The notes below the pieces were generated by a model that did no database searches, was not told the DNA's origin, and saw only the letters and a program-made list of their open reading frames with translations. The position numbers and the translations under genes are program-made. Positions 21,792 to 49,475 of a stretch of 64,000 nucleotides of DNA are shown here, piece after piece (positions within the stretch are counted from its first letter, which is position 1; each line of letters starts with the position of its first letter). Source of the stretch: Acidobacteriota bacterium (GTDB taxonomy: Bacteria > Acidobacteriota > UBA6911 > RPQK01 > CBDDCF01); NCBI GenBank assembly GCA_965225995.1, contig CBDDCF010000032.1, positions 98,838 to 162,837 on the forward strand. The letters are read 5' to 3'.

Positions 21792-24700
21792 GTGTCTTTT
21801 CGAAAAGCTCGTTCCCGATCTGTTTTTCTGCTGGTAGTTTTCGCTTCCTCACTTCTTTGGGCCGCCAACGTCGTGGGCCGGTCTCGACTCCCAAACTCAA
21901 TCGCCTGGCGAGAGATCGGACCCGCTTCTTTCGGAGGCCGGATCGATGACATCGAGGCCGTTCCTTCGAATCCCCACCACATCTATGTCGCCTCTGCATC
22001 GGGAGGAATCTTTCGGAGTCGAAACAACGGGGTCTCCTGGGACTCTGTTTTCGATCAGGCCTCGATGATGCTTTCTATCGGGGACATCGCGATTGCGTCT
22101 TCCGACCCGAACATTATTTGGGCCGGTACGGGCGAACCCAACAACCGCCAGAGCTCTTCCTGGGGAGCCGGTGTTTACCGTTCGCTCGACGGTGGCGACA
22201 GCTGGAAGCTGATGGGACTGGAACAGACCCATCACATCGGACGCATCGTCGTTCATCCTCGCGACCCAAACATCGTCTTCGTCGCGGCCCTCGGACATCT
22301 CTGGGGTTCCAACTCGGAGCGAGGTCTTTATCGCACCACCGACGGTGGAAAATCCTGGAACAACGTCCTGAGAATCAATGACGACACCGGAGTTGTCGAC
22401 GTAGCCCTGGAAAACAACGGCCGTATTCTCTATGCAGCCTCTTACCAGCGTCGAAGACGGGCTTGGGGGTTCGTAGGTGGCGGCCCCCACAGTGCCATCT
22501 ATCGTTCTCTAGACGGTGGAGACACCTGGAAAGAGCTTACCGAGGGGCTCCCGACCGGCGACACAGGGCGCATTGGAATCTCAATCTCCTCCAGCAATCC
22601 CAACATCGTCTACTCCATTATCGAAAACAAGGAAGGTGGAATCTTTCGCTCCGAAGACCGAGGGGCCCATTGGATAAAGACGAATTCCCTCAACCCCCGG
22701 CCCATGTACTACAGCCAGATTCGTGTCGATCCCAACAATTCGAATAAGATCTGGGTTCTGGGTAGTCCTCTCTACGTCTCAAACGATGGTGGAGAGACCT
22801 TTGCCAGCGAGGCGACCGGAGTGGGAATCCATGTCGACCATCACGCCTTTTGGATCAATCCCAAAAACAGCGACCATGTGATGCTGGGAAATGACGGGGG
22901 TCTCTACTTTTCCTATGACGGCAGCCGTAACTGGGACTTCATCGACAATCTCCCCATCGGCCAGTTCTACGCCATTGCAGTCGACCAACGGGATCCCTAC
23001 TGGGTCTATGGAGGCACTCAGGACAACGGAAGCTGGGCCATTCCGAGTCGGACGTATAGCCGACTCGGGATCATGAACCAGGACGTAGTGAATATCGCCT
23101 ACGGTGATGGCTTCTATGCCGCGACGACACCCCAGGATGAGCGCATCGTTTATGCCTCGTCTCAAAGTGGACGGCTCTACCGGGTCGATCTGCCCACCCG
23201 TGAAGAAAAAGGCATCCGGCCGGTGCCGAACGATGCCGAAGAAGAGTACCGCTTCAATTGGAGCACTCCGCTGATCGTTTCAGTACACGATCCGCATACG
23301 CTTTATGCAGCCGGCAACAAGGTGTTTCGCTCCACCGACCGGGCTCATAGCTGGCAGGAGATCAGCCCGGATCTGACACGCAATCTGGAATGGAAGGAGC
23401 TCCCCATCATGGGTGTGACTCGCGACGACGAGACGCTGTCGCGGGATGACGGTTTGGACAACTACGGGAACATTACGACGATGGCGGAATCTCCACTACT
23501 GGCAGGGTTGCTCTATGTCGGGACCGACGACGGAAATGTCCAAATGACTCGTGACTCCGGAAAGAACTGGAGCAACTTGACCGACAACTTCTCATTACCG
23601 GGCCAGCGCTGGGTCAGCCGGGTGGCTCCTTCTCACCATGCTGTTGCCACCGCCTACGTCACCTTCGACGGGCACCAGGACAACGACTTCAGACCCTATG
23701 TTTTCAGCACCACCGACTCGGGTGAGAGCTGGCAGAGCATTGCCGGCAATCTTCCCAATGGAGTTGTCCTCAACTCCTTTGCCGAACACCAGAGAAATCC
23801 CAAACTGCTCTTGGCGGGAACCGAATCAGGGGTCTATGTGACTCTGAACGGAGGCGAGACGTGGGATCACTGGGCCGGGAATCTTCCGCCTGTACCCATT
23901 GATGACATCATCATCAAGCAACCCGAAAATGACGTCGTACTCGGAACCCATGGCCGCAGCATCATCATCCTGGACGACATCACAATGCTGGAGAACCTCA
24001 GTACCGAAGTACTCGATTCCGAATTGCATCTATTCCGCCCCCGCGAGGCTACCCAATACTACGCAAAGAGAAGCCTGCCGGTACCGGGAGCCTCGGAGTT
24101 TCAAGGACCTAATCCGGATCCAGGGGCTCTATTTACATACTATTTGAAGAATAACGCCGAGAGCGATCCTGAAGCAGAAGACTCAGAACCCGCCGTTCAA
24201 GTTGTAATAGAGGACGGCCAAGGGAAGCGGATCCGCGAGCTGGAAGGAGCCTACAAACAGGGGTTTCACCGGATTGCGTGGGACCTTCGTTATCCCCTGA
24301 GCTATGCAGCCGATCCAAATGAAGAGTCCTGGTTCGGACCGATGCGAGGTCCATTCGTGATGCCCGGCCGCTATACCGTTCGTTTGAGCGCAGGAGCCCG
24401 ATCCACCAGCCAAAGCTTCGATGTGCGGGTCGATCCGGAGACGCAAACCTCACCCCCGGTGCTACGAGAACGCCACGATCTCAGTCTCCGCGTAAACCAG
24501 CTTCTCGGGAGCTTTGATAAGGGCAGCAAAACCGTTCAGGCACTCTCCGAGGAGCTGGCCGCACTCAGGGAAAAGCAGGATGAAAGAGAGCTCGCCCAGA
24601 GCCTCCGAGAAACCCAGGAAGAACTTGAGAAGGAGATAGACGAACTGAAGGAAGCCCTCAAGACTGGCTGGGGCAGCGAGCAGTTCAAGCTGATGGATTT

Positions 24701-24902
24701 GCTGGGCCAGCTTCAAGCCTCTACTTCCCGACCCACCGACAGCCAGCAAAGGAGTGCCCAACAATTGGCCTCCAAACTGGCAACCAACATCGAGCGGGTC
24801 AATCGGGTAGCCACACAGGACTTCCCCAGATTCATCAAACAGGTGCAGGCACACGGACTCTCGACTCCCTCTTTCGACAAGATCGTAGTGCCCCGCCGAT
24901 GA
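21792..24902 (+). CDS. Secreted VPS10/BNR-repeat (sortilin-like) glycosyl-hydrolase-like protein
   Basis: WREIGP..GGRI, many SxDGGxxW Asp-boxes, GGTQDNG, RFNWSTP; AGGAG precedes the GTG. Confidence 0.85.
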   Translation: MSFRKARSRSVFLLVVFASSLLWAANVVGRSRLPNSIAWREIGPASFGGRIDDIEAVPSNPHHIYVASASGGIFRSRNNGVSWDSVFDQASMMLSIGDIAIASSDPNIIWAGTGEPNNRQSSSWGAGVYRSLDGGDSWKLMGLEQTHHIGRIVVHPRDPNIVFVAALGHLWGSNSERGLYRTTDGGKSWNNVLRINDDTGVVDVALENNGRILYAASYQRRRRAWGFVGGGPHSAIYRSLDGGDTWKELTEGLPTGDTGRIGISISSSNPNIVYSIIENKEGGIFRSEDRGAHWIKTNSLNPRPMYYSQIRVDPNNSNKIWVLGSPLYVSNDGGETFASEATGVGIHVDHHAFWINPKNSDHVMLGNDGGLYFSYDGSRNWDFIDNLPIGQFYAIAVDQRDPYWVYGGTQDNGSWAIPSRTYSRLGIMNQDVVNIAYGDGFYAATTPQDERIVYASSQSGRLYRVDLPTREEKGIRPVPNDAEEEYRFNWSTPLIVSVHDPHTLYAAGNKVFRSTDRAHSWQEISPDLTRNLEWKELPIMGVTRDDETLSRDDGLDNYGNITTMAESPLLAGLLYVGTDDGNVQMTRDSGKNWSNLTDNFSLPGQRWVSRVAPSHHAVATAYVTFDGHQDNDFRPYVFSTTDSGESWQSIAGNLPNGVVLNSFAEHQRNPKLLLAGTESGVYVTLNGGETWDHWAGNLPPVPIDDIIIKQPENDVVLGTHGRSIIILDDITMLENLSTEVLDSELHLFRPREATQYYAKRSLPVPGASEFQGPNPDPGALFTYYLKNNAESDPEAEDSEPAVQVVIEDGQGKRIRELEGAYKQGFHRIAWDLRYPLSYAADPNEESWFGPMRGPFVMPGRYTVRLSAGARSTSQSFDVRVDPETQTSPPVLRERHDLSLRVNQLLGSFDKGSKTVQALSEELAALREKQDERELAQSLRETQEELEKEIDELKEALKTGWGSEQFKLMDLLGQLQASTSRPTDSQQRSAQQLASKLATNIERVNRVATQDFPRFIKQVQAHGLSTPSFDKIVVPRR

Positions 24903-26710: not shown

Positions 26711-27358
26711 ATGAAAAACAAGAAAGCCGTGCGGAAATCAGAGAAGCAGCAAGTCTATCAGCTAGAGAGCTACACGCTCACCGATCTGGAACAGATCAGG
26801 ATCCTGGCGGATCCTTTGCGGATCCGGATTCTGGAGTGCTTTTGCCAGCAGGAGCGCACTACCAAACAGGTAGCAGATTTGCTGGGAGAAAAGCCGACCA
26901 AGTTGTACCACCACGTGGATGCTCTGCAACGGGTCGGCCTGATTCGAATGACCAGAACCCAACAGAATCGGGGCACGCTCGAAAAGTATTTCCTCTCCGT
27001 GGCTCGTCGTTTCGAGGCGGACCCTGAGCTCTTCTCTACCTCGGAGCAAAGTGAAGTTAAAACTGAGGATCTAGGCTCTATGGTATCTGCCATCTTCGGT
27101 CAGGCCTCGAAGGAGCTCTCTGATTTGATTGAACGGGGCGAAACCGCCCGAATAAAAGATGAAGGGCTCATGGGCTTCGTGGCGCTTCAGGCCTCAAAAT
27201 CCGAGATTCTAGAGATACAGGCTCAACTCGAGTCCCTCTTGGAAACCATCGCCAAGGCTTGCGATCCGGATGCCAGCTCTGACTCCAAGACACCCCGCGA
27301 GTTCTATCGCCTGACGGTGGCCCTCTTTCCCCTCAGTCCAGAAAAGACCGATTCCTAG
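26711..27358 (+). CDS. ArsR-like winged-helix transcriptional regulator
   Basis: LADPLRIRIL...KLYHHVDALQRVGLI...EKYF; divergent from the MFS. Confidence 0.85.
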   Translation: MKNKKAVRKSEKQQVYQLESYTLTDLEQIRILADPLRIRILECFCQQERTTKQVADLLGEKPTKLYHHVDALQRVGLIRMTRTQQNRGTLEKYFLSVARRFEADPELFSTSEQSEVKTEDLGSMVSAIFGQASKELSDLIERGETARIKDEGLMGFVALQASKSEILEIQAQLESLLETIAKACDPDASSDSKTPREFYRLTVALFPLSPEKTDS

Positions 27359-27363
27359 CCTTC

Positions 27364-27435
27364 CCAAAGCGGTAGCTGAATTTGACCCAACTTGTCAGGG
27401 TGACGCACCCGACTTCGCTACCGCACTCCAAATCG
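27364..27435. repeat. REP-like element (reverse orientation)
   Basis: CCAAAGCGGTAGC-N40-GCTACCGCACTCCAAATCG. Confidence 0.7.
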
Positions 27436-28424
27436 CCGATAGCTACTCTGCGTTTGCAGTTCTTCGGGACGCCCCGGAGCTCCATAAAACTTTTATGCGT
27501 AATTTCTTCGCATTTGTCTCCAGGATTTCGTATTCTGGGTTCCATGAGGAGCCTGATTCGATCTCTCTGTGTTTCCCATTCCTCTTCGCAGTCCGTTCTG
27601 GGGTTGCTGGCAATGAGCCTGATGCTAGTGCACTGTCCGATAAGTTCCAGATGTTAATAGTGGCCGAGCGATTCGCGAGCATTTTGGGCCTTTGCCAGGA
27701 TTGAGTCAGCAGTGGCGCGCCACTTGAAGGGCTTGGCCAAGCGTTGATTGTGAACCCGAATATATCTTTTGATTTCCTGTCTCAACTCTTGGACGCTGCT
27801 GAAAGAGTTTCTGTAGATCGAACGGCGCTCCAGCTGTGAGAACCAGCTTTCGACGGCATTGAGCCAGGAGGCGCTAGTGGGCGTAAAGTGGAGGTGGTAT
27901 CGGGGCCGCTGGGCCAGCCAGCTTTGAACCTGCTTGGTCTTATGAGTGCTCGAGTTGTCCAGGATTAAGTGGACATCCAGTTCGGGCTCGACCGCTTGAT
28001 CAATCTGGCGGAGAAAAGCCAGGAACTCCTTGGCTCGGTGCCTATTGGTGATGCGGCCCATGACCTCACCTGTCACCACATCGAATGCGGCATACAGACT
28101 GGCTGTACCGTGGCGCTTGTAATCGTGTGTCCGGCGTTGGATCTGTCCCGGTCTGAGCTGGAGCATCGGCTGAGTTCTATCCAGAGCCTGGATCTCAGTT
28201 TTCTCGTCCACGGATAGAACCAGCGCATTGTCGGGCGGATCCATATACAGCCCCACCACATCGATTACCTTTTCGGCGAAGTGAGGATCGTTGCTGATTT
28301 TAAAGTTACGGACTCGATGCGGCTTCAGGTGTCAGGGGCCACCCAAAAGCGGCCAGTGAGGGCCACTTCAAAACCGGCCATTCTCAGGAGCCATTGAGAG
28401 CTGCATCCCTCGTAGGATGCGCCG

Positions 28425-29921
28425 ATGGTCAATGTACTGAAAATGGAGAAGAAACAAACGGTTGTGGCGCTATTGAAGCTGGGCTGGTCGTATCGGCGGA
28501 TCGAGCGAGAAACAGGAGTTCGTCGAGAGACTGTAGCCCGACATGATCCGTCCCGAGATTCAAAACCGGCCAAAGTGGCCCCCGGCTCGGGTGAGCAGAA
28601 GCGGCCAAAGCGGCCCCCGGGTCGGCGCAGCTCGTGTGAGCCTTTTCGGGAGGAAATCCAGAAGAAGCTTGAGCTGGGGTTGCATGCCAAGCGGATCTGG
28701 CAAGACCTGGTTTTGGAGCATGGCTTCGATGGAGCGTATAACTCCGTCAAACGGTTTTGCAGAAAGCTCAAAGCCGAGAGTCCACGAGTCTTCGCTCGGG
28801 TGGAAACTCCACCCGGTCGGGACATGCAGGTGGACTTTGGCAAAGCAGCTCTGACACAAACCGAATCGGGCCGGTACCGTCGCCCCCACCTGTTCAAGGC
28901 AGTGCTGTGTTATTCCCGCCACTCGTATGAGGAGGTCGTCTGGCGGCAGGATCTGGAGACCTTCGTCCGTTGTGTCGAGAATGCCTTCCACTGGTTTGGT
29001 GGCTCGGTAGACGTGGTTCGCTTGGATAACCTGAAGGCCGGAGTCACGCGAGCCTGCTTTGTCGATCCCGAGATCAACGCCGTTTTCAGTGCGCTGGGCC
29101 GTCACTATAGTTTTGCCATCATTCCCATCCATCCTGGCTCTCCAAATGAGAATGGAAAAGTCGAAAGGACGATCGGATATACAAAGTCCAGTGCCCTGAA
29201 GGGCAGACGGTTCGAGAGTCTGGCCGAGCAGAATGAGCATCTACGGAACTGGAACGAGCGGGTCGCCCGACAGCGCATCCACGGCACCACCAAACAGCAG
29301 GTCTGGCCCCGATTCCTGGAGGAACAGAAGGGTCTTCGACCTCTACCCGACTCCCGCTTCAGTTTCTTCCGTACCGGCCGTCGCACGGTCTCCGTGGATG
29401 GCCACATCGAAGTCGATCGAGCCTTCTACTCGGTACCCAATCATCTGCTTGGCTGTGAAGTGGCTGTGCACTGGGATGACCGGATCGTCCGAGTCTTTTT
29501 CCGAGAGCAGCAAGTCGTCCTGCATCCCAAGCGGAAACCCGGCCAGTTCCAGACCGAACCCACACATCTTCCGGAACGCAAACGCTACGCTCATTATCGA
29601 ACTGAGAGTCAGCTGCTCGGGCAAGCCCGCAGGATTGGCTCTGATGCTCACCGCTGGGCAGTGCGAGCCCTGGAGGTGCGCGACGTGTTGGCCTACCGGC
29701 TCCTGAGAGGCATGATCTCTTTGACCCGACGCTACCCGGCCACGGTCGTCAATGAAGCCTGTGCCAAGGCTCTCTCTCACGATGCCTTCCGCTATCGGAC
29801 CCTGGTGGCTTTATGCAAGCGACTAGACGTGCCGCAACGCTCTCTATTCACCTCCGACCACGAGTTGATTCGGCCGCTGTCTGAGTACCAACTCACTCCC
29901 CGCTCAGGAGACCCGGAATGA
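28425..29921 (+). CDS. istA: IS21 transposase IstA
   Basis: ETPPGRDMQVDFG, LDNLKAGV, NGKVER. Confidence 0.93.
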   Translation: MVNVLKMEKKQTVVALLKLGWSYRRIERETGVRRETVARHDPSRDSKPAKVAPGSGEQKRPKRPPGRRSSCEPFREEIQKKLELGLHAKRIWQDLVLEHGFDGAYNSVKRFCRKLKAESPRVFARVETPPGRDMQVDFGKAALTQTESGRYRRPHLFKAVLCYSRHSYEEVVWRQDLETFVRCVENAFHWFGGSVDVVRLDNLKAGVTRACFVDPEINAVFSALGRHYSFAIIPIHPGSPNENGKVERTIGYTKSSALKGRRFESLAEQNEHLRNWNERVARQRIHGTTKQQVWPRFLEEQKGLRPLPDSRFSFFRTGRRTVSVDGHIEVDRAFYSVPNHLLGCEVAVHWDDRIVRVFFREQQVVLHPKRKPGQFQTEPTHLPERKRYAHYRTESQLLGQARRIGSDAHRWAVRALEVRDVLAYRLLRGMISLTRRYPATVVNEACAKALSHDAFRYRTLVALCKRLDVPQRSLFTSDHELIRPLSEYQLTPRSGDPE

Positions 29922-30691
29922 TCTCATTGGAACTGGAACGGAAACTTCGCCACCTCAGGCTCTCGGGCCTGGCCCAGGTCTTTGACGTACGGCTGCAACA
30001 AGCCATCCAGGGCCGTCTCTCTCATCAGGAGTTCTTTGAGCTGCTCATCGACGACGAACTCACCCGCCGGCGCGACCGTTTGCTGGAGCGATGTCTCCGC
30101 CAGGCCCAGTTCCCGGAACGCAAACTCTTGGAGGACTTCAGGTTCTCTTTCAACACCTCGATCAATCGGCAGCAGATCTTTGATCTGGCCACTTGCCGAT
30201 TCATCGAACAGTGTCGCGGCTGGTTGGTCATCGGTCAGGCGGGAGTCGGCAAAACACATCTGATCATCACGGTGGCAATCAAGGCTGTGGAAGCGGGTCA
30301 CCGGGTACAGTACAAGTCGGCTTTCGATCTGCTCGAGGACATCGCTGAAGCCACTGCCACCGGGATGCGCCGACCCTACATTGCAGAGATGACCCGGATC
30401 CCGCTGCTGATCATCGAGGATCTGGGACTTCGGAGAGTGCCCGACTCGGCGGCTGAAGATCTGCTGGAGATCCTGCATCGCCGCTACCAGAAGACCTCGA
30501 CCATTATCAGTTCGAACCGACCACTCGAGGACTGGGGAGCGATGCTGGGAGGAGACACGGCGGCCACCTCTGCGCTGCTGGATCGTTTTCTACACGTTTC
30601 GGAGGTGACCTTCATTCGAGGCAAGAGCTATCGCCTCTACGAACGTCAGCAACGGGAGAAGTCGACCAAGAAGCGAGGAGAAAAGAAATGA
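29918..30691 (+). CDS. istB: IS21 AAA+ helper IstB
   Basis: GQAGVGKTHL, LIIEDLG, ALLDRFLH..GKSYR; ATGA overlap with istA. Confidence 0.93.
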   Translation: MISLELERKLRHLRLSGLAQVFDVRLQQAIQGRLSHQEFFELLIDDELTRRRDRLLERCLRQAQFPERKLLEDFRFSFNTSINRQQIFDLATCRFIEQCRGWLVIGQAGVGKTHLIITVAIKAVEAGHRVQYKSAFDLLEDIAEATATGMRRPYIAEMTRIPLLIIEDLGLRRVPDSAAEDLLEILHRRYQKTSTIISSNRPLEDWGAMLGGDTAATSALLDRFLHVSEVTFIRGKSYRLYERQQREKSTKKRGEKK

Positions 30692-33600
30692 GCCGGAACC
30701 GGAAAGCCGTGGAAACTGCCGCGCTATGGAAACCGTGGAGAACGGTCACATCGAGAAGCTGGCCCATGCATCGGTTCTTCCACCGTTCCCACAGCGCTTG
30801 GAAAACGGCTCGCGGTGCTCGCTCGTTTCCCACAGTTACGCACCGCTTCTGCTACTGGACATACCAACAAGAAAGAAGATTCCGGATCGAGCAGCTTCGC
30901 GGTCCAAGAACCGGCCGAACCGGTCAACGAACGCCCTGCTCACGGGCTCACAGCAAACCCGCCCCGACCAGCAAGGCCGTACAGCCTCCTCACGGAGGCC
31001 TTCACAAGGATTGAAATGTGTTCAAGGCGAGGATATAACTACTAGATCACTGGCCGGTTTTGACCCGGCCCTGAGTGGCCGCTTTTGATGTGGCCCCCGA
31101 CATTCAGGTCGGCTGCCTTCCAGATCTGGGCGACTTGATGTTTGCTCACTCCGGAGTGTTCGGCCATCAGTCGCACACTCCAGTAGGTCGATTCCCGTGG
31201 GATGCGTTCAACGGTGGCTTTGAGAATAGCTCGCACATTGGCATGCGATAGCTTCCGCGGACGGCCCGATCGAGGTCGATCCTCCAGTCCTGACACTCCC
31301 TGCTCAAGATAGCGCCTGCGCCACATTTGCACACTCATTAGCCGCTTGGAGAGCCTTTCCGCAACTTCAGTCGCCGTCAGCCCCTGGCCGCAAGCCAGAA
31401 TTATTTGAGCCCGTTCGGCCAAGACTCGATCGGTCTTGGAAGCCCGCAACCAGGACTCCAGTATTCTTCGATCTTGTTCGGGTAGCTTTAGTCGAATGTG
31501 GGGTCTTGCCATGCCCAACAATAGCAAACTACCCCGACAATTAACATCGGTAACTTTCCGGACAGTGCACTAGATCCCCTCGGTTTCGCCCAAGAGGCCG
31601 CGATCTTCACTCTGCCCGGCAAGCTGACCGCCGGTGGTGCGTCCAGCCTGACCCTAACTTTGTTGGACTCTCAGACTCGCGAACCTCTGGCCGGGCCGAT
31701 CGAGGTTGATTTTCTGAGTGCCCAGGGTGAGACCACGCGATTGTTCCGAGGCCAAACTGACCCGAGCGGGAGACTCAGCCTACCTTTCCAGGTTCCCCAA
31801 GTTAGTTCCGGAGCTCATAAGATCCGGGTGCGGGCAGGAGCAGGAGTCGAGCTGGAGGCCACTGTCTCTGTCAGCTCGGCACCGGCTCTGCTGCTGGAGA
31901 CTGACAAGCCGATCTATCAGCCGGGCCAGACCATGCAGGGGCGAGTTATCCGGCTGAGCAATGCTCTGGCCCCCATTCCGGGCCCGGTCGAAGTGGTCTT
32001 TTGGGACGGCAAGGGAATCCGAATTGCTCGCTTCGATCTAAATGCTGGTGAATTTGGAGTCGCCCCCTTTCAGCTAGAGCTGGCATCTGAGCTGAACGAA
32101 GGGCTATGGCAGATCCGAGCCCGAAGTGATGGTTCGGAGAATCTTCGTGATGTGCGGGTCGAACGCTATGTACTGCCCCGCTTCGAAGCCCTCCTGAGTC
32201 CGGATCGCACTTGGACCCTGGTTGGTGAACCGGTCACCGGCTCTGTCCAAGCCCGTTACTTCTATGGCCGCTCAGTCCAAGGAACCGCACGTCTGGAAGC
32301 GTTCCGTTGGGTTGGGACGTGGCAGAAATACGCGGAAGCCGAAAGCGATTTGCAAGACGGTCTTTGGGATTTCCAGCTCCCGGCCGTCGAGTTTGTGGCG
32401 GGAGTTCCTCAGAATGGAGGCCAGGGGACGATTCGCCTCGATCTAATCGTCACCGACACAACCGGTGAGTCTCAGTCCGTCTCCCAGACTCTGACCGTAG
32501 CTGAAGCTGCTTCCGTCGTCATGATACAGGCTCAGATCCCCCATCTGAAGCCCGGGCTGCCGCTCCCCTTTCTGATCACGACCGCGACTCCGGGCGGCGA
32601 CCCGGTCAGCGAAGCCGTTGAGCTCTTCCTTCGGTATCAAAGAAACGGCGGGGACGCAGAAAGCGAAAGGAGGCAGCTGATGACCTCTGAGGGCCAGGCG
32701 CTTCTTGAAGTCGTACCTCCCTTGGATACCTACTCGGCCCACGTCGAAGCTCGTCCCAGAGACCACAAGGGCACTGCTGAAATCTACTTGTCGGCCTCCT
32801 ATTCCCCAAGCGACAGCTTCTTGTATCTGCTTCGAACCGACGGCAATGGCCCGGCCCAACTCGGTCGGCAAGCGAGTTATCGCATCAACTCCTCTCTCGA
32901 GACGACAGTCTTCTATGAAGTTTACGCCTCCGGCAGAACGATTTTTTCGGCTTTTACCGAGAGCGACGAATTCTCTTTCGCAATCACTCCGGAAATGGTT
33001 CCCGCTGCCAGCATCGTCGCCTATCAGATTACTCCAGAAAGCGAAGTCATCGCCGACACCGTAAATCTGGAAGTACGGGGGAGTGCGGAGATCCAAGTCG
33101 AAGCCGGCTTCAGTGAGGAAGAAGTCCGACCCGGCGACCCGGTGGCAGTGACGATTCGCACCGGACTCAATCGAAGGTCGCTCTTGGGCCTGGCGATCGT
33201 GGACCAATCGGTTCTTTCTTTGGGACGCAGTCGCCTCTATCTGGAACAGGTCTTCGAGGAGTTGGAGCGCAAATTCTTGGCCCCGCTGGCGATAGCCATC
33301 GTCGACGAACCACTCGGCCCCGGCCTCGGCCTGCCGTTCTTCGAGCCTTTTTCTCAACCCTCGACCCGGGAAACTTTTGGAAAAGCCGGGTTACAGGTAG
33401 TCACGACTCCCAACCTGAACATTCCTGAGAGTATCGAGCGCTACTTTTTCGACGGGCTCCCGGTCCTTTCACCACCTCCAGAGGGTGGAGGTGGTGCCAG
33501 TGCGGCACCAGAGGTACCTCGGGTGCGGCAGTTCTTTCCCGAGACCTGGTTCTGGAATCCCACCCTTTTGACAGACGAAAACGGGGTGGCACACTTCGAA

Positions 33601-36600
33601 CTGACAGCCCCCGACAGCATCACTGGCTGGAACCTGTCCGCGGTGGCGACTCACTCCACCGAGGGACTCGAAATGACTCCGGGGATCGCGTTCGGAGAGT
33701 CCGCGTTGACTGTCTTTCAGGGCTTCTTCGTCGAGCCGACCTTACCCGTTCAGGTCAGTCGTGGGGAGCGTTTCCCACTCCAAATCGATATCTTCAACTA
33801 CCTGGATGAGCCGCAACAGGTAAGTCTGGAGCTCGAGGATTCCAGCGCCTTCGAACTACTGGAAGGAGCCGAGCGGTTGGTGGATGTGGCGGCCAACTCC
33901 ACGGCAAGCGTTGAGTTCCCCTTGCGGCCGCGTCAGGTGGGAGAGTTCCCGGTGCAGATTACGGCCCCGAACCGGGGTTGTCGCTGATGCCGTGAGGCGC
34001 CCCCTTAGAGTAGTGGCGGAAGGCTTTCCCAGTAATCAGGTCACCAATTCGGTGCTCGAGGCCGGCCAAGAGGTCACCTTCGATCTTTCAATTCCAGAGG
34101 ACGCCATACCCGATTCTGTTTCCGCCTTCCTCAACCTGACGCCCAGTGCCGTAGCCCAGACCATGCAGGGAGTCTCTGCTCTGCTCGAAATGCCTTACGG
34201 CTGTGGCGAGCAGAACATGATCTTCCTGGCTCCAGACATCGAGATTCTCAAATATCTGCGTGAGATTGGGGAGCTGAGCCCTGGGACTCGTGCCGAAGCC
34301 GAGCACTTCATCAACCTCGGTTATCAAAGACAGCTCACTTTCCAGACCTCTGATGGTGGGTTTTCGGCCTTTGGACAGCCACCTGGCGGACTCTGGCTGA
34401 CCGCCTTTGTCCTCTCCACTTTCTCCGGCGCTCGCGAGGTGCGTGACATCGATGAATCGGTGCTCGATCAAGCGGCAGCTCTGCTTCTCTCACGCCAAAA
34501 CGAAGATGGCTCCTTTCGGACTGACGACTTTCTGATCCATACCGAACTGCTGGGCGGCGTCGAAGACCGGCACACCATGACGGCCTACGTCACGAACGCT
34601 TTGGCCGAGTACGGCTCTGGATCGGTGCAGGACGGGCTACGACGAGCTGCCGACTACCTGGTTACCCACCTGACAGAAGTCGCCAGTCGGCCCTATCCAA
34701 TAGCTATTGCCGCGGTCGCCCTTTTTCAGGTCGCCGGATTCGAGCAAGCCGCCGAAGGGTTCGTCGACAGACTCTTGGAACTCTCGATTATGGATGGTCC
34801 TGGGATTCACTGGGAACCATTCCCGGTCGAGACAACCGGGTACGCTGCCCAGGCCATGCTGGTCTCCAATCAAGGGGTGGGACGGCCGGAACTGGCAGCG
34901 GCCTTCGACTGGCTGGTCACCCAGCGGAATTCTCTCGGAGGCTACGGTACTTCGACCCAGGACACGGTGGTCGCCTTGCGCGCCCTTTCCAGCGCTGCCC
35001 GCAACCTGAACCGCGATCTGAGTATTCCAATTCGGGGCACAGCCGGCGAACAGGTTTTGCTTGACCTGCTGATTGACTCATCTAATTTTGACCTTCTCCA
35101 CCAGGTCAGCTTGCCCATCGATGGTCTCCCGATCAAAATCCAAAGCAGCGGAGACTCCTCGGTTGGCTATCAAGTGACTACGCGGTTCAATCTGCCCTCG
35201 AATTCTCTCCCTCTCGATCGGGATCTGACGATCGATGTGAGTTACGACGCGACTCACATCGAGGTCGATGACCTGGTCGATGTCACCGTGTCCCTGCTTT
35301 ACACGGGCCTCAAGGATCGAACCGGGATGGTCATCGCCGACATCGGAATCCCCACCGGGTTCGGAGTGGTGCAGGAATCACTGGACGAACTGCTCGTCGA
35401 AAAGATCGTCTCGCGAGCCAAGTTAGCGGGCCGAAAAGTCATCTTTTATCTGGATTCCCTCCCCGGCTCGCCGATCGCGATCAGTGCTCCCATAACTCCA
35501 GAGCCGATACGTTTCGAATTCCAGATTCGAGCCCTCTTCCCAGTACGCTCCCTCGAGGTGGTCTCGCAAGCATATGAGTATTACGATGCGGCTATCCGCG
35601 GTTTCCATGTCGCCCCCGCGCTACAGATCGCCGAGTCGGGCGTCCCCCAGCCTCGGATCGACTCGACATCGGAAATCGAGGGTACTGGCGGAAGCGTGAT
35701 CGAGGTACAGGGCAGCGGCTTCCTGGGAGGGTCGCTCGAGATCCTCTTCAACGGCCAGACTGCTCGAATCATCGAGATTGTGAGCGACTCTCTGGTGCGG
35801 ATCCAGGTTCCCAATCTGATTCCCGGTGACAGCCAGATTGAAGTCTTCACGAATGGCGGGACAGGAGCTGCGCCGGAGGGCTTCAAAATCCGTGATTACC
35901 GGCTCTATCTGCCGCTGTATTCTGACTCCCAATCGTTCTCAGGGCTGGCCTTCTCGAACACCTCTGAGCGCGATGCCCGGATCGTGCTCGCGGGGCGCTC
36001 AGGTGACGGAACAATTGTGCCGAGAGAACAGAACCCTCGCCAATTGATCTTGAAAACGGAAGGGCAGCTGGCCCGTCTGGCCTCCGAAATCTGGACAGAA
36101 GGTGGTGCTCAGCTGGCCCCTATTCGCTGGCTCGAGGTGCGGAGCGATAACGCCGAGATTTCGGGAACTTTTCAATTCGGAGACCAGCAATAACTGGACG
36201 GTATCCTGCCCGCACTGAAGAGCTTTCCGGTGTTCTTTTTCACCCGCGTACACCACGGCCCAACTGCTTTCCTGGGACAGCCGGCGAGCATGAGCCTGCT
36301 TGTCATCAATCCCCATGACTCGAGCGGCCAGGCGCGGCTGACGCTCTTCTTGCCGGGCGGAGAGACACGCTCCGTCAGCCGCGAGATCAAGGCCCAGGGA
36401 ACCCTGGAAGGCACCATCTCAGACTTCTTCGGAAAAGCACAGATCAGCTCAGGCTATCTCAAGGTGGGACTCTTGGGCAGTCCGGGCGGAGTCGGCTTTG
36501 CGCGGATTAAGCTTGGGAATGGGGAATCAGTGGTAGGTTTAAGCGGCCAGCAAATGGCTGCCGGAAACCGCTCTTGGTCGGCGCGTATCGCCAGTATCGA

Positions 36601-37285
36601 GAGTTTCTTCACTCACCTCAAACTGGTCAATCTTTCGACCCAGAAAAGGTCCCTTCAGTTGCATCTTAGATCTGGCACAGCTGCTGGCTCGCAAAGCTCC
36701 ACAAAGAACATCATTCTGCCAGCCGGGGCTCAATTGGATCAGTTCGCGGACCAGCTGTGGACTGAGCTCGGACCAGCTGGGACCCAGATCCTGATCGGAG
36801 CTTTGGAAGTCGAAGCCGATGGTCCCGGGATTACCGGGAACATTCTCTTTGGAGGACGAGCCGCTGTCACTCAGGCGACCCTTCTTCCATTGCAAGAATC
36901 CCCAGTCCGCTTTGTCCTCTTCAGCCATGTTGCAGATAACCAGAACTTTTTTACCGGCCTCGCATTGTTCAATCCAAATCCCGAACCCACAACCATTGAG
37001 ATTGCCCTCCACCGGCCCTCCGGGAGTCTGATCAGCAGGGTCGAAGTGGTGCTCTCAGCCGGAGCCTCCAAGACTGCGGAGATCCGCGAATTCATACCAG
37101 CAGCCACCGGTCTGGCAGGCGGATACCTGACCCTACGAAGCGACCTGGGAGTTGTCCTTCAAGAGATGTTCGGAGATCGCCAACTTCAGTTTCTGTCGGC
37201 CGTTCCCGCCTCGAAAGCATCCCTGGCAAACGAATAGTAGGGTTGCTTACAAGATAGACTTGCGCCACCATGTCCCCGAATGTAG

Positions 37286-38170
37286 ATGCCGCGCTTAACC
37301 GTCTTCACATCGTCAGTCTATCCCGACATCGTTCGTATCTGGAACGACTGACGTCGTTCACTACCTGCCGAGGAGATTCGCGTCGAGGTCTTTTCCGATT
37401 CGTCCTCTCACCACCTTGACGAAGACACGCTTCCCGGCGCGACCATCTTGAGAAGGAACCATTTGTGCCGGGATTTCCACGATGCCTACAATGACGCTCT
37501 CGCGCGTTCCACAACTCCCTACCTGGCCTTTGTCGACACAGATATTTTTTGGTTGTCGCCGGCCGTTTGGCCGCGTGCACTCAAAGAACTCGAGCACAAT
37601 GAAGTAGCTGCAGTATCATGCATCTCTCGGAGGAACTGTGAAAGTCCGGGTACATTCGCGGTCATTATGAAAACGGCAGTCTATCGCCCAGTCCTGGCCA
37701 ACGTTCCTGATGGCTTTTATCCGGCGTTCGAGGGAATTGCTCCGGAAACAGCGCCAGAGCAATGGAAGCGCTTCGATACCGGGGATCGGGCTGCGCGGGC
37801 CGTGCTGGATGCCGGTTACAAAATCCGCCTACTTCACTTGGATGAGCAAGGTGATTTTGTGCGATTCGACGGTCTTACGCTAACCCGCCGAGCTCTCGAA
37901 TGGATCGGCCCCGACAACTTCCTGAAAGTAGCCCAGGAGAGCACCTACCATTGGATGGGACTAGCGGGAAACGCGATCCTCAAGCGACTCTACGACCGCC
38001 TCTATCCCGATGGGGCGGCCTTCGAGTTCCCCTTTTCTCCGGGCGTGGCATTCCGTACAGCTCTGAGTCATGGCCCCGCCACGCTTGCTCGTCGCTTAAG
38101 AATGCTGTGGCGACTCGCCCATGGATCGCGCCGCATAGAACGCCGGGTTCGTGACACGGTTTCATCATGA
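37286..38170 (+). CDS. GT-A-fold glycosyltransferase-like protein with an in-frame TGA at codon 22 (37349-37351)
   Basis: AFVDTDIF DxD motif. The upstream in-frame segment MPRLTVFTSSVYPDIVRIWND resembles the N-terminus of the paralog at 40623. Confidence 0.6.
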
Positions 38171-40346
38171 TTCTTCTCATCAATACGAAGTCCACGCGGC
38201 CGCTGTGGCGACGCTTTCCCTTGTCCGTCATGGCCCTCGGAGCGGTCCTGCCGGCGGAGGCATCGTGGGAGATTTGGGACGGTAACAAGCCGGAACCGGA
38301 TTTTCTTGAACGGGTAATCGCCCGGGTCGCAGCCACGCAAGAGTCATCTGATCCGGTTACTCTTCTAGCCTTTAGCGTGATGCCAGGACCCCAACTTGTA
38401 AGCGCCGCCGAGACATCAAGATCGCTCAAAGAGCGCTTTCCTGAGATACCAATAGCATGGGGCGGCTATTTCCCCAGCCTGTATCCGAAACCTGTGCTCG
38501 ACGCCCACTACGTCGATTGGGTCATTCGCGGTCAGGGCGAACGGACGCTTGTGGAACTGCTAGAAGTCGTCGAAGGCCGGCGAGATGCTTCCCGGGTAGC
38601 CAGCCTCGCGTTCTGCTCTGAAGATAGAGTCCATCGAATAAACCCCGATAGACCCTGGACCGGACCCAACGACTTCCCATCCCCGCCCTACCACAGAATC
38701 GACGTGGGTGACTACCTGGGACCAACCGCCCTGGGCCGCAGGTCAGGCGTCTACCAGGCTTCGATAGGTTGCCCGTATCAATGCAGTTTTTGCGGCGTGA
38801 TCTCCGTCTATGGGGGTGGCGAGAGATTCGAAGACCCCGCGCGTACTGCCTCCAACCTCGACCATCTCGTCAGCCAGCACGGGATGGACTCGGTACACTT
38901 CTACGACAACAATTTCTTCCTCAAAGAATCACATGCTGAGGAGCTTTGCGATCGCCTTGCGCCACTCCATCTCAATTGGTGGTGCGAGACGCGGATCGAC
39001 GGAATGCTGAGATTTTCGGATGCAACCTGGAGGAAAATCGAGCGGGCCAGCGCACGTATGGTCTTCTTTGGAGCCGAGTCCGGCTCCGATGCCGCGCTGC
39101 AGGCGATGAAAAAAAAGCTCACTACGACACAGACCCTTGAGATCGCCGAGCGCCTGGCCCATACCCCATCGTCCCTGAATTCTCATTCATGCTGGGCGGC
39201 CCGGATGATCCGGAAGAAGACATCGGCGCGACGCTCAACTTGATTCGCAAACTGAAACAGATTGATCCTCGATGCGAGATTGTCTTTCACTACTACACCC
39301 CCATGCCGCGTTCGAACGGAGAGGAACCAGAGATCGCGCCTACAGACGCAACACCGACGTCGATAGAAGAATGGTGCGAACCAGCGTGGGTCGACTGGAT
39401 GACCTTTGAGAAACCGCGAACCCCATGGATGAACCGGCGACTCTGGAAACGTGTCGCCAATTTTCAATTGGTCCTGGAGAGTCCTTTTCCTTCCCTGCAC
39501 AGCTCGCAGATCAACGGCTGGCGCCGCAAGCTAGTGCAGCGTCTGGCGCGCTGGCGCTGGGATGAAGGACGCTTCAAGAAGCCCCTGCTACTGCGTGCAG
39601 CACGCACATGGTTACGGCACCGTCCGGAAGACTCCCAGGCTTATGGCCATTTGCGACCACCAGAGGAAGCCGGACCTGCTCTGTCTCCGCGCGATGGGTA
39701 TCGGCTTTGGGCAGCGACTTATGAGGGCCCCAACGGGATGACACACCTCGACGAGCTCGCGGTAGAGCGGCTCTCACCCAGGAATTTCAGCCACCTCGTC
39801 GACGCAGGTTGCGGAACCGGTTGGCGCCTGCCACCAGAAGAGACTGGTTCCAGCATCGGCGTCGACCTATCTACCGAAATGCTCGCAATCGGTAGAGCCC
39901 GTGGCGAGACACGGTTGCTGGACGCCGACATTCGGACACTGCCGTTTCAAGCCGGAGCCTTCGATTTGCTTTGGTGTCGACTGGTGCTATCCCATCTCGT
40001 AGACGCCGGCAAAGCCTATCTCGAACTGGGGCGGACGGCATCTGCCGCGGCCTCTTTGATTGTTACGGACATGCATGTCGATGCGGTGCGAGCCAGCTTT
40101 AGAACCAGCTTCATGGATCCGTCCGGCCGGACGCGGTTCATCCAGGTCCACATGCGCACGCTGGACGATCATGCGCGGCTGGCCGCGGATGCTGGATTCG
40201 AGCTCGAAGACATGTTGGAGTACGAGATCGGACCCGAGATCCGGCAGCTCTTCGAATCCGCGGGCGCGCGGCGTCTCTATGAGCGCCACAAGGGTCACAA
40301 GGTACTGTTGGCTATGCGATTCATCAAACGAAGCGGACATGAGTGA
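38167..40346 (+). CDS. B12-binding radical SAM enzyme fused to a class I SAM methyltransferase; frameshift at 39164-39167
   Basis: WGGYFPSLY, RGQGE, GCPYQCSFC (CxxxCxxC), GAESGS; one added C gives HTPIVPEFSFMLG; C-terminal LVDAGCGTG. Confidence 0.8.
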
Positions 40347-43064: not shown

Positions 43065-44726
43065 CTAATTCTCAATCTTCCTGAGAGTGCGCCAGCGCCC
43101 GTCAATCTTCACCTCGATTTGAGTTCTCTGCGGCTTCAGGCGCATTTCCACGGCTCCGCGGTTGGGAAAAGCCAGGTGATAACCGATCAGGCGGCGGGAG
43201 GCAACCGGAATAAACCGGACCGGCGCCAGTGGCAGACTGGCCTCCAGAATACTAGTGAGCTGGTTCTCCACCCAGCGTAGCCAGCGCAACTCGTTTCCTC
43301 GCTCGAATCGAAGCTCCACGTAACTACGTGAACCGCCAGCTTGCGGTATCGTGCCAATGAGGGCGGTTTCTTGAAGAACTCCATGTCGAGACTCCAGCCC
43401 TTCCAGCCAACCCTCAAGCGCATTCACCGAGATGGAATCCCCCGAGCTCTGGCCAGCAACGGCAAAATCCCGAACTTTCAGTGCCTGCAGCAAGTTGGAG
43501 GCACGCCGACTCGCTCTGCTTAGCTCCCTTGCCTGCTCAGGACTAGATGCCACCAGCCAGTTGACTGCCTTCTGTCCCCGTCCTGAAACCTGCAAAGTCT
43601 CTCCCGAGAGCTCGAGGTTCAATTCAAAGTGCGGATCCAGGCCGTATCGCCCCGCCCAACTCGCCAGATTCTGAACGGATCCCGTCTTGGGGCGCCAGTT
43701 CAGGACGGGATTCGCCTGCGAAAGCACCCGATCCAGCAGTTCGACGACAGCCGGTGCGGGCCCGGCCAGACCATAGTTATGATTAGAAAGTACGAGAATG
43801 TGCCCCCGTTCGTTCCCGCACCAGCGAGCGTTGTAACCAAGCGTCATGGCCCCGGTCAGACACCACTGGAAACGCCCCCCCGATGCCTCTCTCGTTGACG
43901 CCACTCTCATCAGTTGGCTGTGACGAGAGTCGCCGAAGAACCCCCTGGTGAGGAACTGTCGCCAGCGACCCAATTCGACCACATTGGAGACAAGCTCGGC
44001 AGCCCCTCGATAATTCCAATCCATTGCCTTTCGCAGCTCCGTTCCGAAATCGCGAGTCCACGTGTACTGCACCGCAACTCGAGCGGGCGGCCAACGGTCC
44101 ACCTCATCAAGGAATCCGGATTCGGACATTCCCGCCGGTTGCAGTAGGTGGCGGCGCAAGAACTCAGGATAGGGGTGACCGCTGATCTCTTGGATCAATG
44201 CTGCCAAGACGGCATATCCCGCATTTGAATACTCGAACCGTTGGCCCGGTCGATCCACGTTTTCCAAACTCTCAACACAATTGAGGAACCCTTCGCGTGA
44301 CGTCGGCCGGTCCTCATCACAGCTGAAAGGCAGACCGGATCGATGGCTCATAAGTTGCTCGATCGTGACGCTAGCCAACGACTTCAATCGTGCCGGCCAC
44401 AGCTCTTCCAGCGAATCTCCAACTTGCAGCCGACCCTGCTGCTCGAGCCAGAGAATAGCGGCAGCCGTGAAATGCTGCGAAATCGAAGCCACTGCAAAGA
44501 GGGTTTCGGGAGTGTTGGGCAATTGCTCCTTCTGATTTGCCAACCCCAACCCGCGTATCCACTCCCTTCCTTGGGCGTTCCCCACCAAAACCGCGCCTGA
44601 AAAGCCATGCAAGTCGAGCAGATCGAGCTGATCTTTCAGGCTGCTTGAAAACTCTCGTCGGTTGATCTGGGCGGATGCAACTGCGCCGCTAAGCACGAAA
44701 AAAACTAGCCACCACCGGGTTATCAA
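43065..44726 (-). CDS. Serine hydrolase, beta-lactamase class C family (SxxK appears as SxxQ)
   Basis: GFSGAVLV, TIEQLMSHRSGL, FEYSNAGY, LQPAGM; signal peptide; start approximate. Confidence 0.8.
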   Translation of the reverse strand: MITRWWLVFFVLSGAVASAQINRREFSSSLKDQLDLLDLHGFSGAVLVGNAQGREWIRGLGLANQKEQLPNTPETLFAVASISQHFTAAAILWLEQQGRLQVGDSLEELWPARLKSLASVTIEQLMSHRSGLPFSCDEDRPTSREGFLNCVESLENVDRPGQRFEYSNAGYAVLAALIQEISGHPYPEFLRRHLLQPAGMSESGFLDEVDRWPPARVAVQYTWTRDFGTELRKAMDWNYRGAAELVSNVVELGRWRQFLTRGFFGDSRHSQLMRVASTREASGGRFQWCLTGAMTLGYNARWCGNERGHILVLSNHNYGLAGPAPAVVELLDRVLSQANPVLNWRPKTGSVQNLASWAGRYGLDPHFELNLELSGETLQVSGRGQKAVNWLVASSPEQARELSRASRRASNLLQALKVRDFAVAGQSSGDSISVNALEGWLEGLESRHGVLQETALIGTIPQAGGSRSYVELRFERGNELRWLRWVENQLTSILEASLPLAPVRFIPVASRRLIGYHLAFPNRGAVEMRLKPQRTQIEVKIDGRWRTLRKIEN

Positions 44727-44903
44727 AATGCAAAGGGGGACAACTCCAGCCAGTTCACAGCCGGACCGCCTGTTTCGTGTTTGCCGAAGCATTCTGCTAG
44801 TTTGACTTATTGATCTGGAATCCGCGAGCTGAAGCCCGACCAATCGTTTTGAATCGGTGCGAAGCAACAAAGGGGGGGATGATGTGGCAGAGGAAAGCTC
44901 CAA

Positions 44904-48162: not shown

Positions 48163-48294
48163 AATCGTTCCCTTCTTACGCCCGCTACGCCAACCTTCAG
48201 TTTAGATGGCAGTTTAGAAGAATCGTCTCAGAGTTTACTGGCATGGCGGATCTGAGTCCAGAAGTTACCGCACGATTACTCAGACAGACTCCTA

Positions 48295-49458
48295 GTGCAC
48301 TGTCCGGAAAGTTACCGATTTTAATTGTCAGGGTAGTTTGCTATTGTTGGGCATGGCAAGACCCCACATTCGACTAAAGCTACCCGAACAAGATCGAAGA
48401 ATACTGGAGTCCTGGTTGCGGGCTTCCAAGACCGATCGAGTCTTGGCCGAACGGGCTCAAATAATTCTGGCTTGCGGCCAGGGGCTGATGGCGACTGAAG
48501 TTGCGGAAAGGCTCTCCAAGCGGCTACTGAGTGTGCAAATGTGGCGCAGGCGCTATCTTGAGCAGGGAGTGTCAGGACTGGAGGATCGACCTCGATCGGG
48601 CCGTCCGCGGAAGCTATCGCATGCCAATGTGCGAGCTATTCTCAAAGCCACCGTTGAACGCATCCCACGGGAATCGACCTACTGGAGTGTGCGACTGATG
48701 GCCGAACACTCCGGAGTGAGCAAACATCAAGTCGCCCAGATCTGGAAGGCAGCCGACCTGAAGCCGCATCGAGTCCGTAACTTTAAAATCAGCAACGATC
48801 CTCACTTCGCCTAAAAGGTAATCGATGTGGTGGGGCTGTATATGGATCCGCCCGACAATGCGCTGGTTCTATCCGTGGACGAGAAAACTGAGATCCAGGC
48901 TCTGGATAGAACTCAGCCGATGCTCCAGCTCAGACCGGGACAGATCCAACGCCGGACACACGATTACAAGCGCCACGGTACAGCCAGTCTGTATGCCGCA
49001 TTCGATGTGGTGACAGGTGAGGTCATGGGCCGCATCACCAATAGGCACCGAGCCAAGGAGTTCCTGGCTTTTCTCCGCCAGATTGATCAAGCGGTCGAGC
49101 CCGAACTGGATGTCCACTTAATCCTGGACAACTCGAGCACTCATAAGACCAAGCAGGTTCAAAGCTGGCTGGCCCAGCGGCCCCGATACCACCTCCACTT
49201 TACGCCCACTAGCGCCTCCTGGCTCAATGCCGTCGAAAGCTGGTTCTCACAGCTGGAGCGCCGTTCGATCTACAGAAACTCTTTCAGCAGCGTCCAAGAG
49301 TTGAGACAGGAAATCAAAAGATATATTCGGGTTCACAATCAACGCTTGGCCAAGCCCTTCAAGTGGCGCGCCACTGCTGACTCAATCCTGGCAAAGGTCC
49401 AAAATGCGCGCGAATCGCTCGGCCAATATTAACATCGGGAACTTATCGGACAGTGCAC
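48295..49458 (+). mobile_element. IS630-family element, copy 2 (1164 bp)
   Basis: Same IRs, CTAG at both ends, near-identical to copy 1. Confidence 0.95.
48353..49432 (+). pseudogene. IS630 transposase with a nonsense codon
   Basis: TAA at 48812-48814 where copy 1 has GAA; both parts are in the same frame. Confidence 0.85.
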
Positions 49459-49475
49459 TAGCCTATAGTGGAGGT

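Follow-up and report, generated by a model that had tools for sequence, protein, structure and literature searches.

We analyzed a 64,000-nucleotide stretch of DNA from an Acidobacteriota bacterium (assembly GCA_965225995.1, contig CBDDCF010000032.1, positions 98,838 to 162,837), hereafter called the window, and a broken gene on its plus strand that begins at position 27544. The gene is likely what remains, after decay, of a gene of 1915 codons for an alpha-2-macroglobulin/thioester protein (A2M/TEP) of the animal type that is secreted through Sec and is not a lipoprotein; intact relatives of this protein would act as protease snap-traps. In the window's organism the A2M/TEP gene is a pseudogene and, because of this, nothing is secreted from it. 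A preliminary description of the same DNA had proposed a working secreted protein, which the three breaks in the gene contradict.

Three open stretches make up most of the gene: 31525-33987 in frame 1, 33824-36193 in frame 2, and 36194-37237, past a TAA, in the same frame as the second. The true ATG at 27544 opens 28 signal-peptide codons (27544-27627) ahead of an insertion sequence (IS) insertion, and codon arithmetic showed that 31573, the first codon past the insertion, is in frame with them. The N terminus read across the insertion, MRSLIRSL...MSLML/DPLGFA/QEAAIF, aligned with the signal-peptide ends of intact orthologs. Full read-through gives 28 + 798 + 741 + 1 + 347 = 1915 codons and a gene end at 37237, in agreement with the length of about 1915 residues given in the preliminary description. 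That description had given the gene span as 31573-35620; 31573 is exactly the first codon past the insertion, while the gene in fact starts at the ATG at 27544 and ends at 37237. It had implied, and not stated, that the gene is broken in three places, and the breaks are now located (Table 1). Its motif positions, including CGEQ at 34202-34213 and the His at 34538 at +112, were all confirmed on the plus strand. The GC content of the gene (0.58 to 0.59) was the same as that of the window.

Table 1. Features of the broken A2M/TEP gene and of the elements inserted in it (window coordinates)
Feature	Position	Strand	Remarks
5' gene end: ATG and 28 signal-peptide codons (MRSLIRSL...MSLML)	27544..27627	+	Aligns with the N terminus of ortholog P0003, MRSLIRSLSAS...
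Composite insertion: IS630-family element split by an IS21-family element	27628..31570	-	Copies elsewhere in the genome define the ends
IS21-family element inside the IS630-like element	28330..31102	+	istA 28425-29921, istB 29918-30691
Gene piece 1: signal-peptide end DPLGFA/QE, MG1-MG7	31573..33966	+	Pfam, PDB matches
Pfam domains in piece 1	MG2 31894-32139; MG3 32164-32334; BRD 32848-33222; A2M/MG7 33544-33834	+	
Motif ERYVLPRFE	32161-32187	+	
Bait region of 78 aa with a Pro/Gly-rich end, flanked by FLAPL and RQFFPETW	33289..33522	+	Variable in the family alignment
Motif RQFFPETW	33526-33549	+	Preceded by ...LSPPPEGGGGASAAPEVPRV
Motif PDSITGW	33610-33630	+	
Frameshift: four C where the frame needs three	33965..33968	+	Boundary of piece 1 (to 33966) and piece 2 (from 33968)
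Gene piece 2: CUB-TED-CUB-RBD/MG8, TIG, first ASRT-like repeat	33968..36190	+	
Pfam domains in piece 2	TED 34130-34990; RBD 35318-35590; TIG 35651-35884	+	
Thioester motif CGEQ	34202-34213	+	Within GCGEQNM, 34199-34219
Motif GYQRQL	34319-34336	+	
Motif FLIHTELLGG	34529-34558	+	His codon CAT 34538-34540, 112 residues past the thioester Cys
In-frame TAA	36191..36193	+	Orthologs have Lys there (..GADKLDG.., ..GPGKLDG..)
Gene piece 3: three more ASRT-like beta-sandwich repeats, true stop codon	36194..37237	+	AF2 model, Foldseek

The first break is the composite insertion. BLAST against the organism's own genome placed the halves of the IS630-family element at 27624-28330 and 31103-31573, which join to 1178 bp; within the bounds of the composite they span about 27628-28329 and 31103-31570. 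The composite lies in a CTAG site with TA flanks at 27626-27627 and 31571-31572. An HTH_32/HTH_29 open reading frame (ORF) on the minus strand (31042-31527) belongs to the IS630-family element, and the first A2M stretch abuts this ORF. The IS21-family element matched the Pfam families rve, Mu-transpos_C_2 and IstB_IS21 (1.5e-61). Full-length copies (at least 95% in length and identity) of the 1178-bp IS630-family element numbered 45 in the genome, and those of the 2773-bp IS21-family element numbered 18; the genome is IS-rich and reflects an IS expansion. A second intact IS630 copy was seen in the window at 48292-49462.

The intact orthologs, of 1912, 1900 and 1778 residues, read straight through all three break points, and across the frameshift point orthologs read QITARTG.ADAV. 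The closest intact ortholog is P0004, with 1912 residues, encoded on a contig of 7.6 Mb; over piece 2 its identity is 87%. We compared the contigs of four public sequencing runs from four studies (X1, X2, X5 and X7) with the window over 27300-37300. X1 and X2, from two of the studies, had 0 differences from the window over 31545-37300. X5 and X7 represent a sister strain about 99.4% identical, with 20 and 19 differences in about 2.7 kb and 15 and 14 in 3.1 kb. One base at 33965 is missing from both, which leaves the frame intact there, and both have a 6-nucleotide indel at 33321, inside the bait region. Contigs of all four runs enter both IS630 ends from both flanks. Since the IS ends are entered in all four runs and the X5 and X7 frame is intact at 33965, the insertion is common to all four and the frameshift is a later, strain-specific change. 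The joint 28323-31103 in the run contigs is an uninterrupted IS630 from other copies; another, 31578-34844, was rejected as spurious, having only 21 letters on one side. In RNA run X20, 0.17 of the sampled words were present.

It seems to us extremely improbable that the breaks arose in assembly and that living cells have an intact gene. The frameshift does fall in a homopolymer, CCCC, which is a typical error site; however, X2, from a second study, has the same sequence with 0 differences, and it is at this very base that the sister strain differs. Proper ends and a duplicated target site mark the IS insertion, which is entered in each run, and the TAA is a substitution and not an indel. Programmed frameshifting or stop read-through was ruled out, as the orthologs and the sister strains keep the sequence in one frame. 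An alternative genetic code was also ruled out: the in-frame stops differ (TAA here, TAG in a second A2M gene of the genome described below), and by marker genes the genome is 99.76% complete and 0.09% contaminated.

Some observations weigh against the pseudogene assignment. X1 is possibly the source sample, so that only X2 is clearly independent for the frameshift. The TAA was seen in the window, X1 and X2. A rare allele without the insertion would be compatible with the contig data, even though no contig among the joints listed joined 27627 to 31573 as an empty site would.

We then turn to the class of the protein. In the window pieces, Pfam matched MG2, MG3, A2M_BRD and A2M, followed by TED_complement (1.2e-62, full length), A2M_recep (4.1e-11) and TIG, and the third open stretch (36194-37237) had no Pfam match over the cut-off. 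PDB was searched by phmmer with piece 2, the thioester domain (TED) alone and the N-terminal half. Piece 2 matched human A2M best (1.2e-60, residues 5-507 on 871-1407), followed by A2ML1 (1.7e-52), CD109 (2.1e-50), TEP1 (7e-40), C3 (4.7e-32) and C4 (1.9e-30); E. coli YfhM, the A2M of the ordinary bacterial type, was not among the 44 matches at E<=0.001. The TED alone gave human A2M 4.7e-45, CD109 1.4e-41, A2ML1 4.4e-40, TEP1 2.9e-32, C3 2e-29 and C4 6e-27, and E. coli YfhM just 0.016-0.086. The N-terminal half matched human A2M at 1.1e-40, CD109 at 2e-40, A2ML1 at 5.5e-36, C3 at 1e-30, C4 at 8.2e-29 and TEP1 at 1.3e-20, with YfhM at 2.5e-6 and Salmonella A2M at 7.1e-5. BLASTP of the closest intact ortholog against YfhM gave at best 65 bits, with 27% identity over 259 residues.

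The N-terminal PDB alignments were collinear, running from about residues 47-79 of the query to about residues 63-85 of frog A2M and C3. Ahead of MG2 there are just about 100 residues, with no extra N-terminal MG0/NIE-type domains. The CUB domain, which has no Pfam match of its own, was placed by the human A2M alignment. The Pfam families bMG1, bMG2, bMG3, bMG5, bMG6 and bMG10 had no match in the window pieces or in P0004. YfhM (ECAM) and Salmonella A2M belong to the same superfamily and are likewise bacterial, secreted thioester proteins with almost no Cys in the mature chain, but YfhM of E. coli K-12 has the lipobox LAGC, the CLEQ thioester, those six bMG families and an adjoining pbpC, all of which the window protein lacks, and only a partial, 33-bit TED_complement match. 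By sequence and domain order the protein thus groups as an animal-type A2M/TEP and not as YfhM-type. This is as the preliminary description had it; the separation from ordinary YfhM proteins is by scores. NCBIfam gave sub-threshold matches only, with no curated model for an animal-type prokaryotic clade, and PADLOC gave no defence-system match for P0004.

Human A2M and A2ML1 (PDB 7von, 6tav, 7q1y) were the best matches over both halves. They share the collinear order MG1-7, bait, CUB, TED and RBD, the PYGCGEQNM motif and a variable bait region. They differ in that the window protein adds a C-terminal module of TIG and ASRT-like domains and in that P0004 has no disulfides, its mature chain having a single Cys (the only other Cys of P0004 is in the signal peptide). 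Animal TEPs are rich in disulfides. CD109 (PDB 8s3o, 9fx2) shares GCGEQNM and the His in xIHxELxGG, aligned residue for residue: flIHtellGG of the query falls on rvIHselqGG, where human A2M has Asn. CD109, which is GPI (glycosylphosphatidylinositol)-anchored and furin-processed, is held at the cell surface by a C-terminal device, and the same may hold for the window-type protein, which by contrast ends in TIG and ASRT-like domains. TEP1 and other insect TEPs (iTEPs), C3 and C4 have the same thioester and catalytic His and the same MG/CUB/TED/MG8 core (E 1e-20 to 1e-32), but their similarity is lower than that of A2M and CD109, the window-type protein lacks their ANATO and C345C domains, and no partner genes are kept beside window-type loci.

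GCGEQNM and a His at +112 to +115 were found in 122 of 122 family proteins, and the alignments place this His at the position of the CD109/C3 catalytic His. The concern that it might map far from the thioester was not borne out, since it aligns at the catalytic position. In C3 and C4B the His reportedly directs the thioester to hydroxyl groups, as is said to go back to Dodds in 1996 and Law and Dodds in 1997. Conservation in the family alignment was highest in the thioester segment (mean entropy 0.54). Its most variable, gappy internal stretch was the bait region (residues 601-675 of P0004), between conserved flanks, and the 78-residue bait region of the window protein occupies the ANATO position. 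With the Pfam threshold relaxed to E<=1, neither the window pieces nor the intact ortholog P0004 matched ANATO or C345C/NTR. Because ANATO and C345C are absent and the variable bait region is A2M-style, the protein is A2M/CD109/iTEP-like with a complement-type His, and not C3-like; the complement-like kind suggested in the preliminary description is not upheld.

A hydrophobic N-terminal region was present in 103 of 122 family proteins, and a lipobox-like motif in just 4 of 122. No lipobox was found in the window N terminus read across the insertion or in the aligned orthologs. The N terminus had been described as a signal-peptidase-I type (GFA/QE) without a lipobox, and a Sec-type signal of that kind is what we found.

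Past the RBD, proteins of the acidobacterial branch carry a TIG domain and about 450 residues without a Pfam family. An AlphaFold2 model (35-row alignment; pLDDT 91.3, pTM 0.89) was all-beta. The extension has four ASRT-like beta-sandwiches in total; three to four tandem repeats, about 340-450 residues, form one packed unit. Foldseek matched single repeats to ASRT (2iia) and TM1070 (1nc7) with probability 1.00 over 90-112 residues, at TM scores of 0.76-0.82 normalised to the target. The ESM Atlas pointed to DUF5719 and ASRT clusters: the nearest named ones had PF18986 in 87% and 39% of members, the second also PF07100 in 13%. The window's copy did not reach the Pfam cut-off for ASRT or DUF5719. 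The predicted fold of the module is thus that of an ASRT-type beta-sandwich. Each repeat of the model matches 2iia and 1nc7, as in the ASRT/TM1070/DUF5719 proteins, but here tandem repeats are packed in one unit, and the surface proteins that carry the module, mostly at their C-terminal end, are very diverse.

A search with the last 347 residues found 1590 representative relatives at E<=0.001, 793 at <=1e-10 and 134 at <=1e-30. In most of the best 150 relatives, which were from about 210 to 2700 residues long, the match lay at the C-terminal end. The organism's own genome has at least 15 further loci with an ASRT-like module (including L082-L089). Eight of nine scanned module proteins carried domains of surface type, namely BACON, Sortilin/BNR, LRR, PKD/CARDB, NHL, Ig/RHS or MtrC-like cytochrome domains; weak DUF5719 matches occurred in four of those eight and were the sole match in a ninth protein. 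As an end-piece of surface proteins, the module is widespread and has no name. De Souza, Iyer and Aravind predicted that the ASRT superfamily is sugar-binding and noted extracellular versions (PMC2739507). By analogy, the module would tie the protein to a polysaccharide, on the producer's own surface or on a target.

To place the gene among prokaryotes, one genome per species was scanned with a pattern; 88 relatives were confirmed, of which 80 were kept. As labelled, these were 17 Acidobacteriota, 41 Planctomycetota (Planctomycetia, Pirellulales, Phycisphaerae and Sedimentisphaerales), 3 Omnitrophota, 4 archaea and 15 unclassified. Among 8000 scored candidates, longer proteins only, 3171 reached E<=1e-10, a total that may include eukaryotes; the best 120 of the 3171 were all prokaryotic or unnamed. 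These 120 carried the name "CD109 antigen" (JGI) or "alpha-2-macroglobulin family protein" (NCBI) or none, and one was from the cultured Anaerobaca lacustris. Intact orthologs were found by the survey that the preliminary description had called for, and no neighbouring gene was conserved beyond close relatives. The spread is patchy, with the gene in 8 of 30 genomes of the same order; an A2M_recep match over the cut-off was found in 26 of 301 sampled genomes of the phylum and in 0 of 14 control genomes. The window copy is the sole animal-type copy in its genome.

A tree was built from 75 core sequences with YfhM as the sole outgroup. The YfhM branch had a length of 10, which makes the root unreliable, and no direction of transfer was drawn from the tree. 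Phylum labels required 4 changes on it, the minimum possible, compared with a mean of 20 after shuffling, and 0 of 200 shuffles were as low. The Acidobacteriota formed one side of a starred branch, and the window sequence grouped with five acidobacterial rows (97*). Four metagenome-assembled genomes (MAGs) labelled as archaea (Hydrothermarchaeota, Methanosarcinales, Thermococci and Halobacteria; loci L060, L072, L073 and L075) had the gene at 37-42% identity, and their sequences nested among planctomycete sequences; these copies may represent transfer or mis-binning.

The gene is not a lone transfer but a member of a large prokaryotic clade that groups by phylum, and the overall pattern is unlike that of a recent capture from animals. 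The one-off transfer mentioned in the preliminary description is thus not supported. A recent transfer of an animal TEP gene into the window's bacterium would account for a similarity to animal TEPs much above that to YfhM, but we find it scarcely credible: the confirmed relatives span several phyla, the label changes are far below the shuffled mean, the single Cys of mature P0004 differs from the disulfide-rich animal TEPs, the gene GC equals that of the window, and identity to human A2M is far below the 47-87% among bacterial relatives.

The neighbourhood of the gene was also analyzed. As noted in the preliminary description, no pbpC is nearby: tblastn at E<=1e-5 found no PbpC homolog in the window. 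A penicillin-binding protein-like gene lay within 10 kb at just 2 of the 80 related loci. The 10 flank ORFs of the window had no syntenic match in the 80 loci, and when 2023 ORFs were clustered all against all, neighbours were shared by close relatives only.

The genome does contain a canonical A2M (KYPYTCLEQ) on another contig (C36:319000-326500, locus L090), directly upstream of a PbpC-like gene. This A2M has an in-frame TAG between ORFs of 886 and 770 residues, and the PbpC-like gene is split into overlapping ORFs of 479 and 391 residues. Since the window copy is a pseudogene, the C36 A2M has a TAG and the PbpC-like gene is split, both A2M systems of the genome appear to be inactivated.

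How would the intact relatives work? The domain order is MG1-MG6 with the bait, MG7, CUB, TED with GCGEQNM and the C3/C4B/CD109-type His, and RBD/MG8. All steps of the mechanism that we propose are inferred by homology. An intact relative would be exported by the Sec pathway and stay at or near the cell surface, where its C-terminal module, predicted to bind sugar, may anchor it on a polysaccharide. The thioester would be buried in the native fold. A foreign protease would cleave the variable bait region, upon which the molecule would rearrange and expose the thioester. The His could then form an acyl-imidazole intermediate, from which a hydroxyl or amino group close by would receive the acyl group, so that the attacker would be fixed covalently. 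The His chemistry is known from C3 and C4. The system would be a protease snap-trap of the A2M/CD109/iTEP kind and not a C3-style cascade.

The opsonin alternative supposes a working secreted complement-like protein that covalently tags foreign or host surfaces in a hydroxyl-directed manner and takes part in host interaction. It would fit the catalytic His found throughout the family, hydroxyl-directing in C3/C4B, and the predicted sugar-binding module of the acidobacterial branch. Precomputed Pfam matches in relatives also show other C-terminal modules, PF00404, PF02210 and PF13385, which we take to be dockerin and laminin-G/concanavalin-type domains. On the other hand, the gene is broken three times here, Pfam found no ANATO or C345C/NTR, no convertase-like or other conserved partner gene occurred across the 80 loci, the variable bait region is as in protease-trapping A2Ms, and the His is also present in CD109, one of the two best matches. 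Going by their labels, with names such as sand, groundwater or ocean depth, the relatives are MAGs of bacteria that are not host-associated, although such labels are weak habitat evidence. We found no evidence for the host interaction raised in the preliminary description, and we judge this opsonin alternative unlikely.

Even less likely, in our view, is a covalent adhesin or "chemical harpoon", in which the thioester would attach the cell, or a protein that it secretes, to other organisms or to particles of polysaccharide. The hydroxyl-directed His, the variation of the C-terminal binding modules across the family and the occurrence of the ASRT-like module in many surface proteins agree with such a role. 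However, the whole A2M machinery (MG ring, bait, CUB and RBD), which hides the thioester until proteolysis, is kept, and known thioester adhesins use a different, small domain. For the family, the sequence data by themselves are compatible with the opsonin and the adhesin role as well.

Several points count against the protease snap-trap itself. We found no biochemical test of any member of the clade, and no conserved gene neighbour at the 80 loci gives a functional context. The assignment draws on homology and bait-region variability only, and the place of the His near the thioester on alignment. Surface tagging, the use made of the His in C3 or TEP1, would suit it equally well. On balance, we still consider the protease snap-trap the likely function of the intact relatives.

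Other features were seen in the window around the gene. The downstream genes at 37352-40346 look truncated or fused: a 240-residue ORF there has just part of a GT2 domain, and a B12-binding radical SAM ORF (38167-39243) shares 55 bases with a methyltransferase ORF (39189-40346). These may be signs of further gene decay. Upstream of the locus is a 1036-residue Sortilin/BNR-repeat protein (21792-24902), and downstream is a 612-residue PF00144 ORF (beta-lactamase family serine hydrolase, 43065-44903); in relatives, neither shows synteny with the A2M gene. Shortly before the A2M start, 69-83 bases at 27359-27443 recur at 83-87% identity on contigs C35 and C17 and may be a small repeat or regulatory element.

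In two 2026 reviews (PMC13069473 and PMC12939704), bacterial A2M is described as of the YfhM/ECAM type and a possible transfer from animals is discussed; the words "prokaryot", "horizontal" and "archaea" do not occur in PMC12939704. An A2M-repeat "eukaryote-like protein" in a sponge archaeon is mentioned in PMC6697440. In the full-text literature that was searched, we found no paper on a prokaryotic TEP clade with GCGEQ and the His. The class is real, conserved and apparently unstudied.

It represents a second, much more animal-like class of bacterial A2M, which has GCGEQNM, an RBD, the catalytic His and the domain order of the animal proteins in full, which is common in MAGs labelled Acidobacteriota and Planctomycetota and whose relatives carry only automatic names. 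For studies of mechanism, a disulfide-free thioester protein with a single Cys should pose little difficulty for expression in bacteria, and with a proper tree the class makes the origin of the complement/TEP family testable. The clade could be the nearest prokaryotic kin, and possibly the source, of animal TEPs, its intact members being glycan-directed covalent taggers and a forerunner of opsonisation; we regard this as possible but rather doubtful. If true, the hydroxyl-reactive His-thioester combined with a lectin-like ASRT module would be a bacterial forerunner of complement-style opsonisation and not a mere protease trap, and the usual idea that bacteria took A2M from animals would be reversed. 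The window copy is a dead example, and it is the many intact relatives in other bacteria that give the class its interest.

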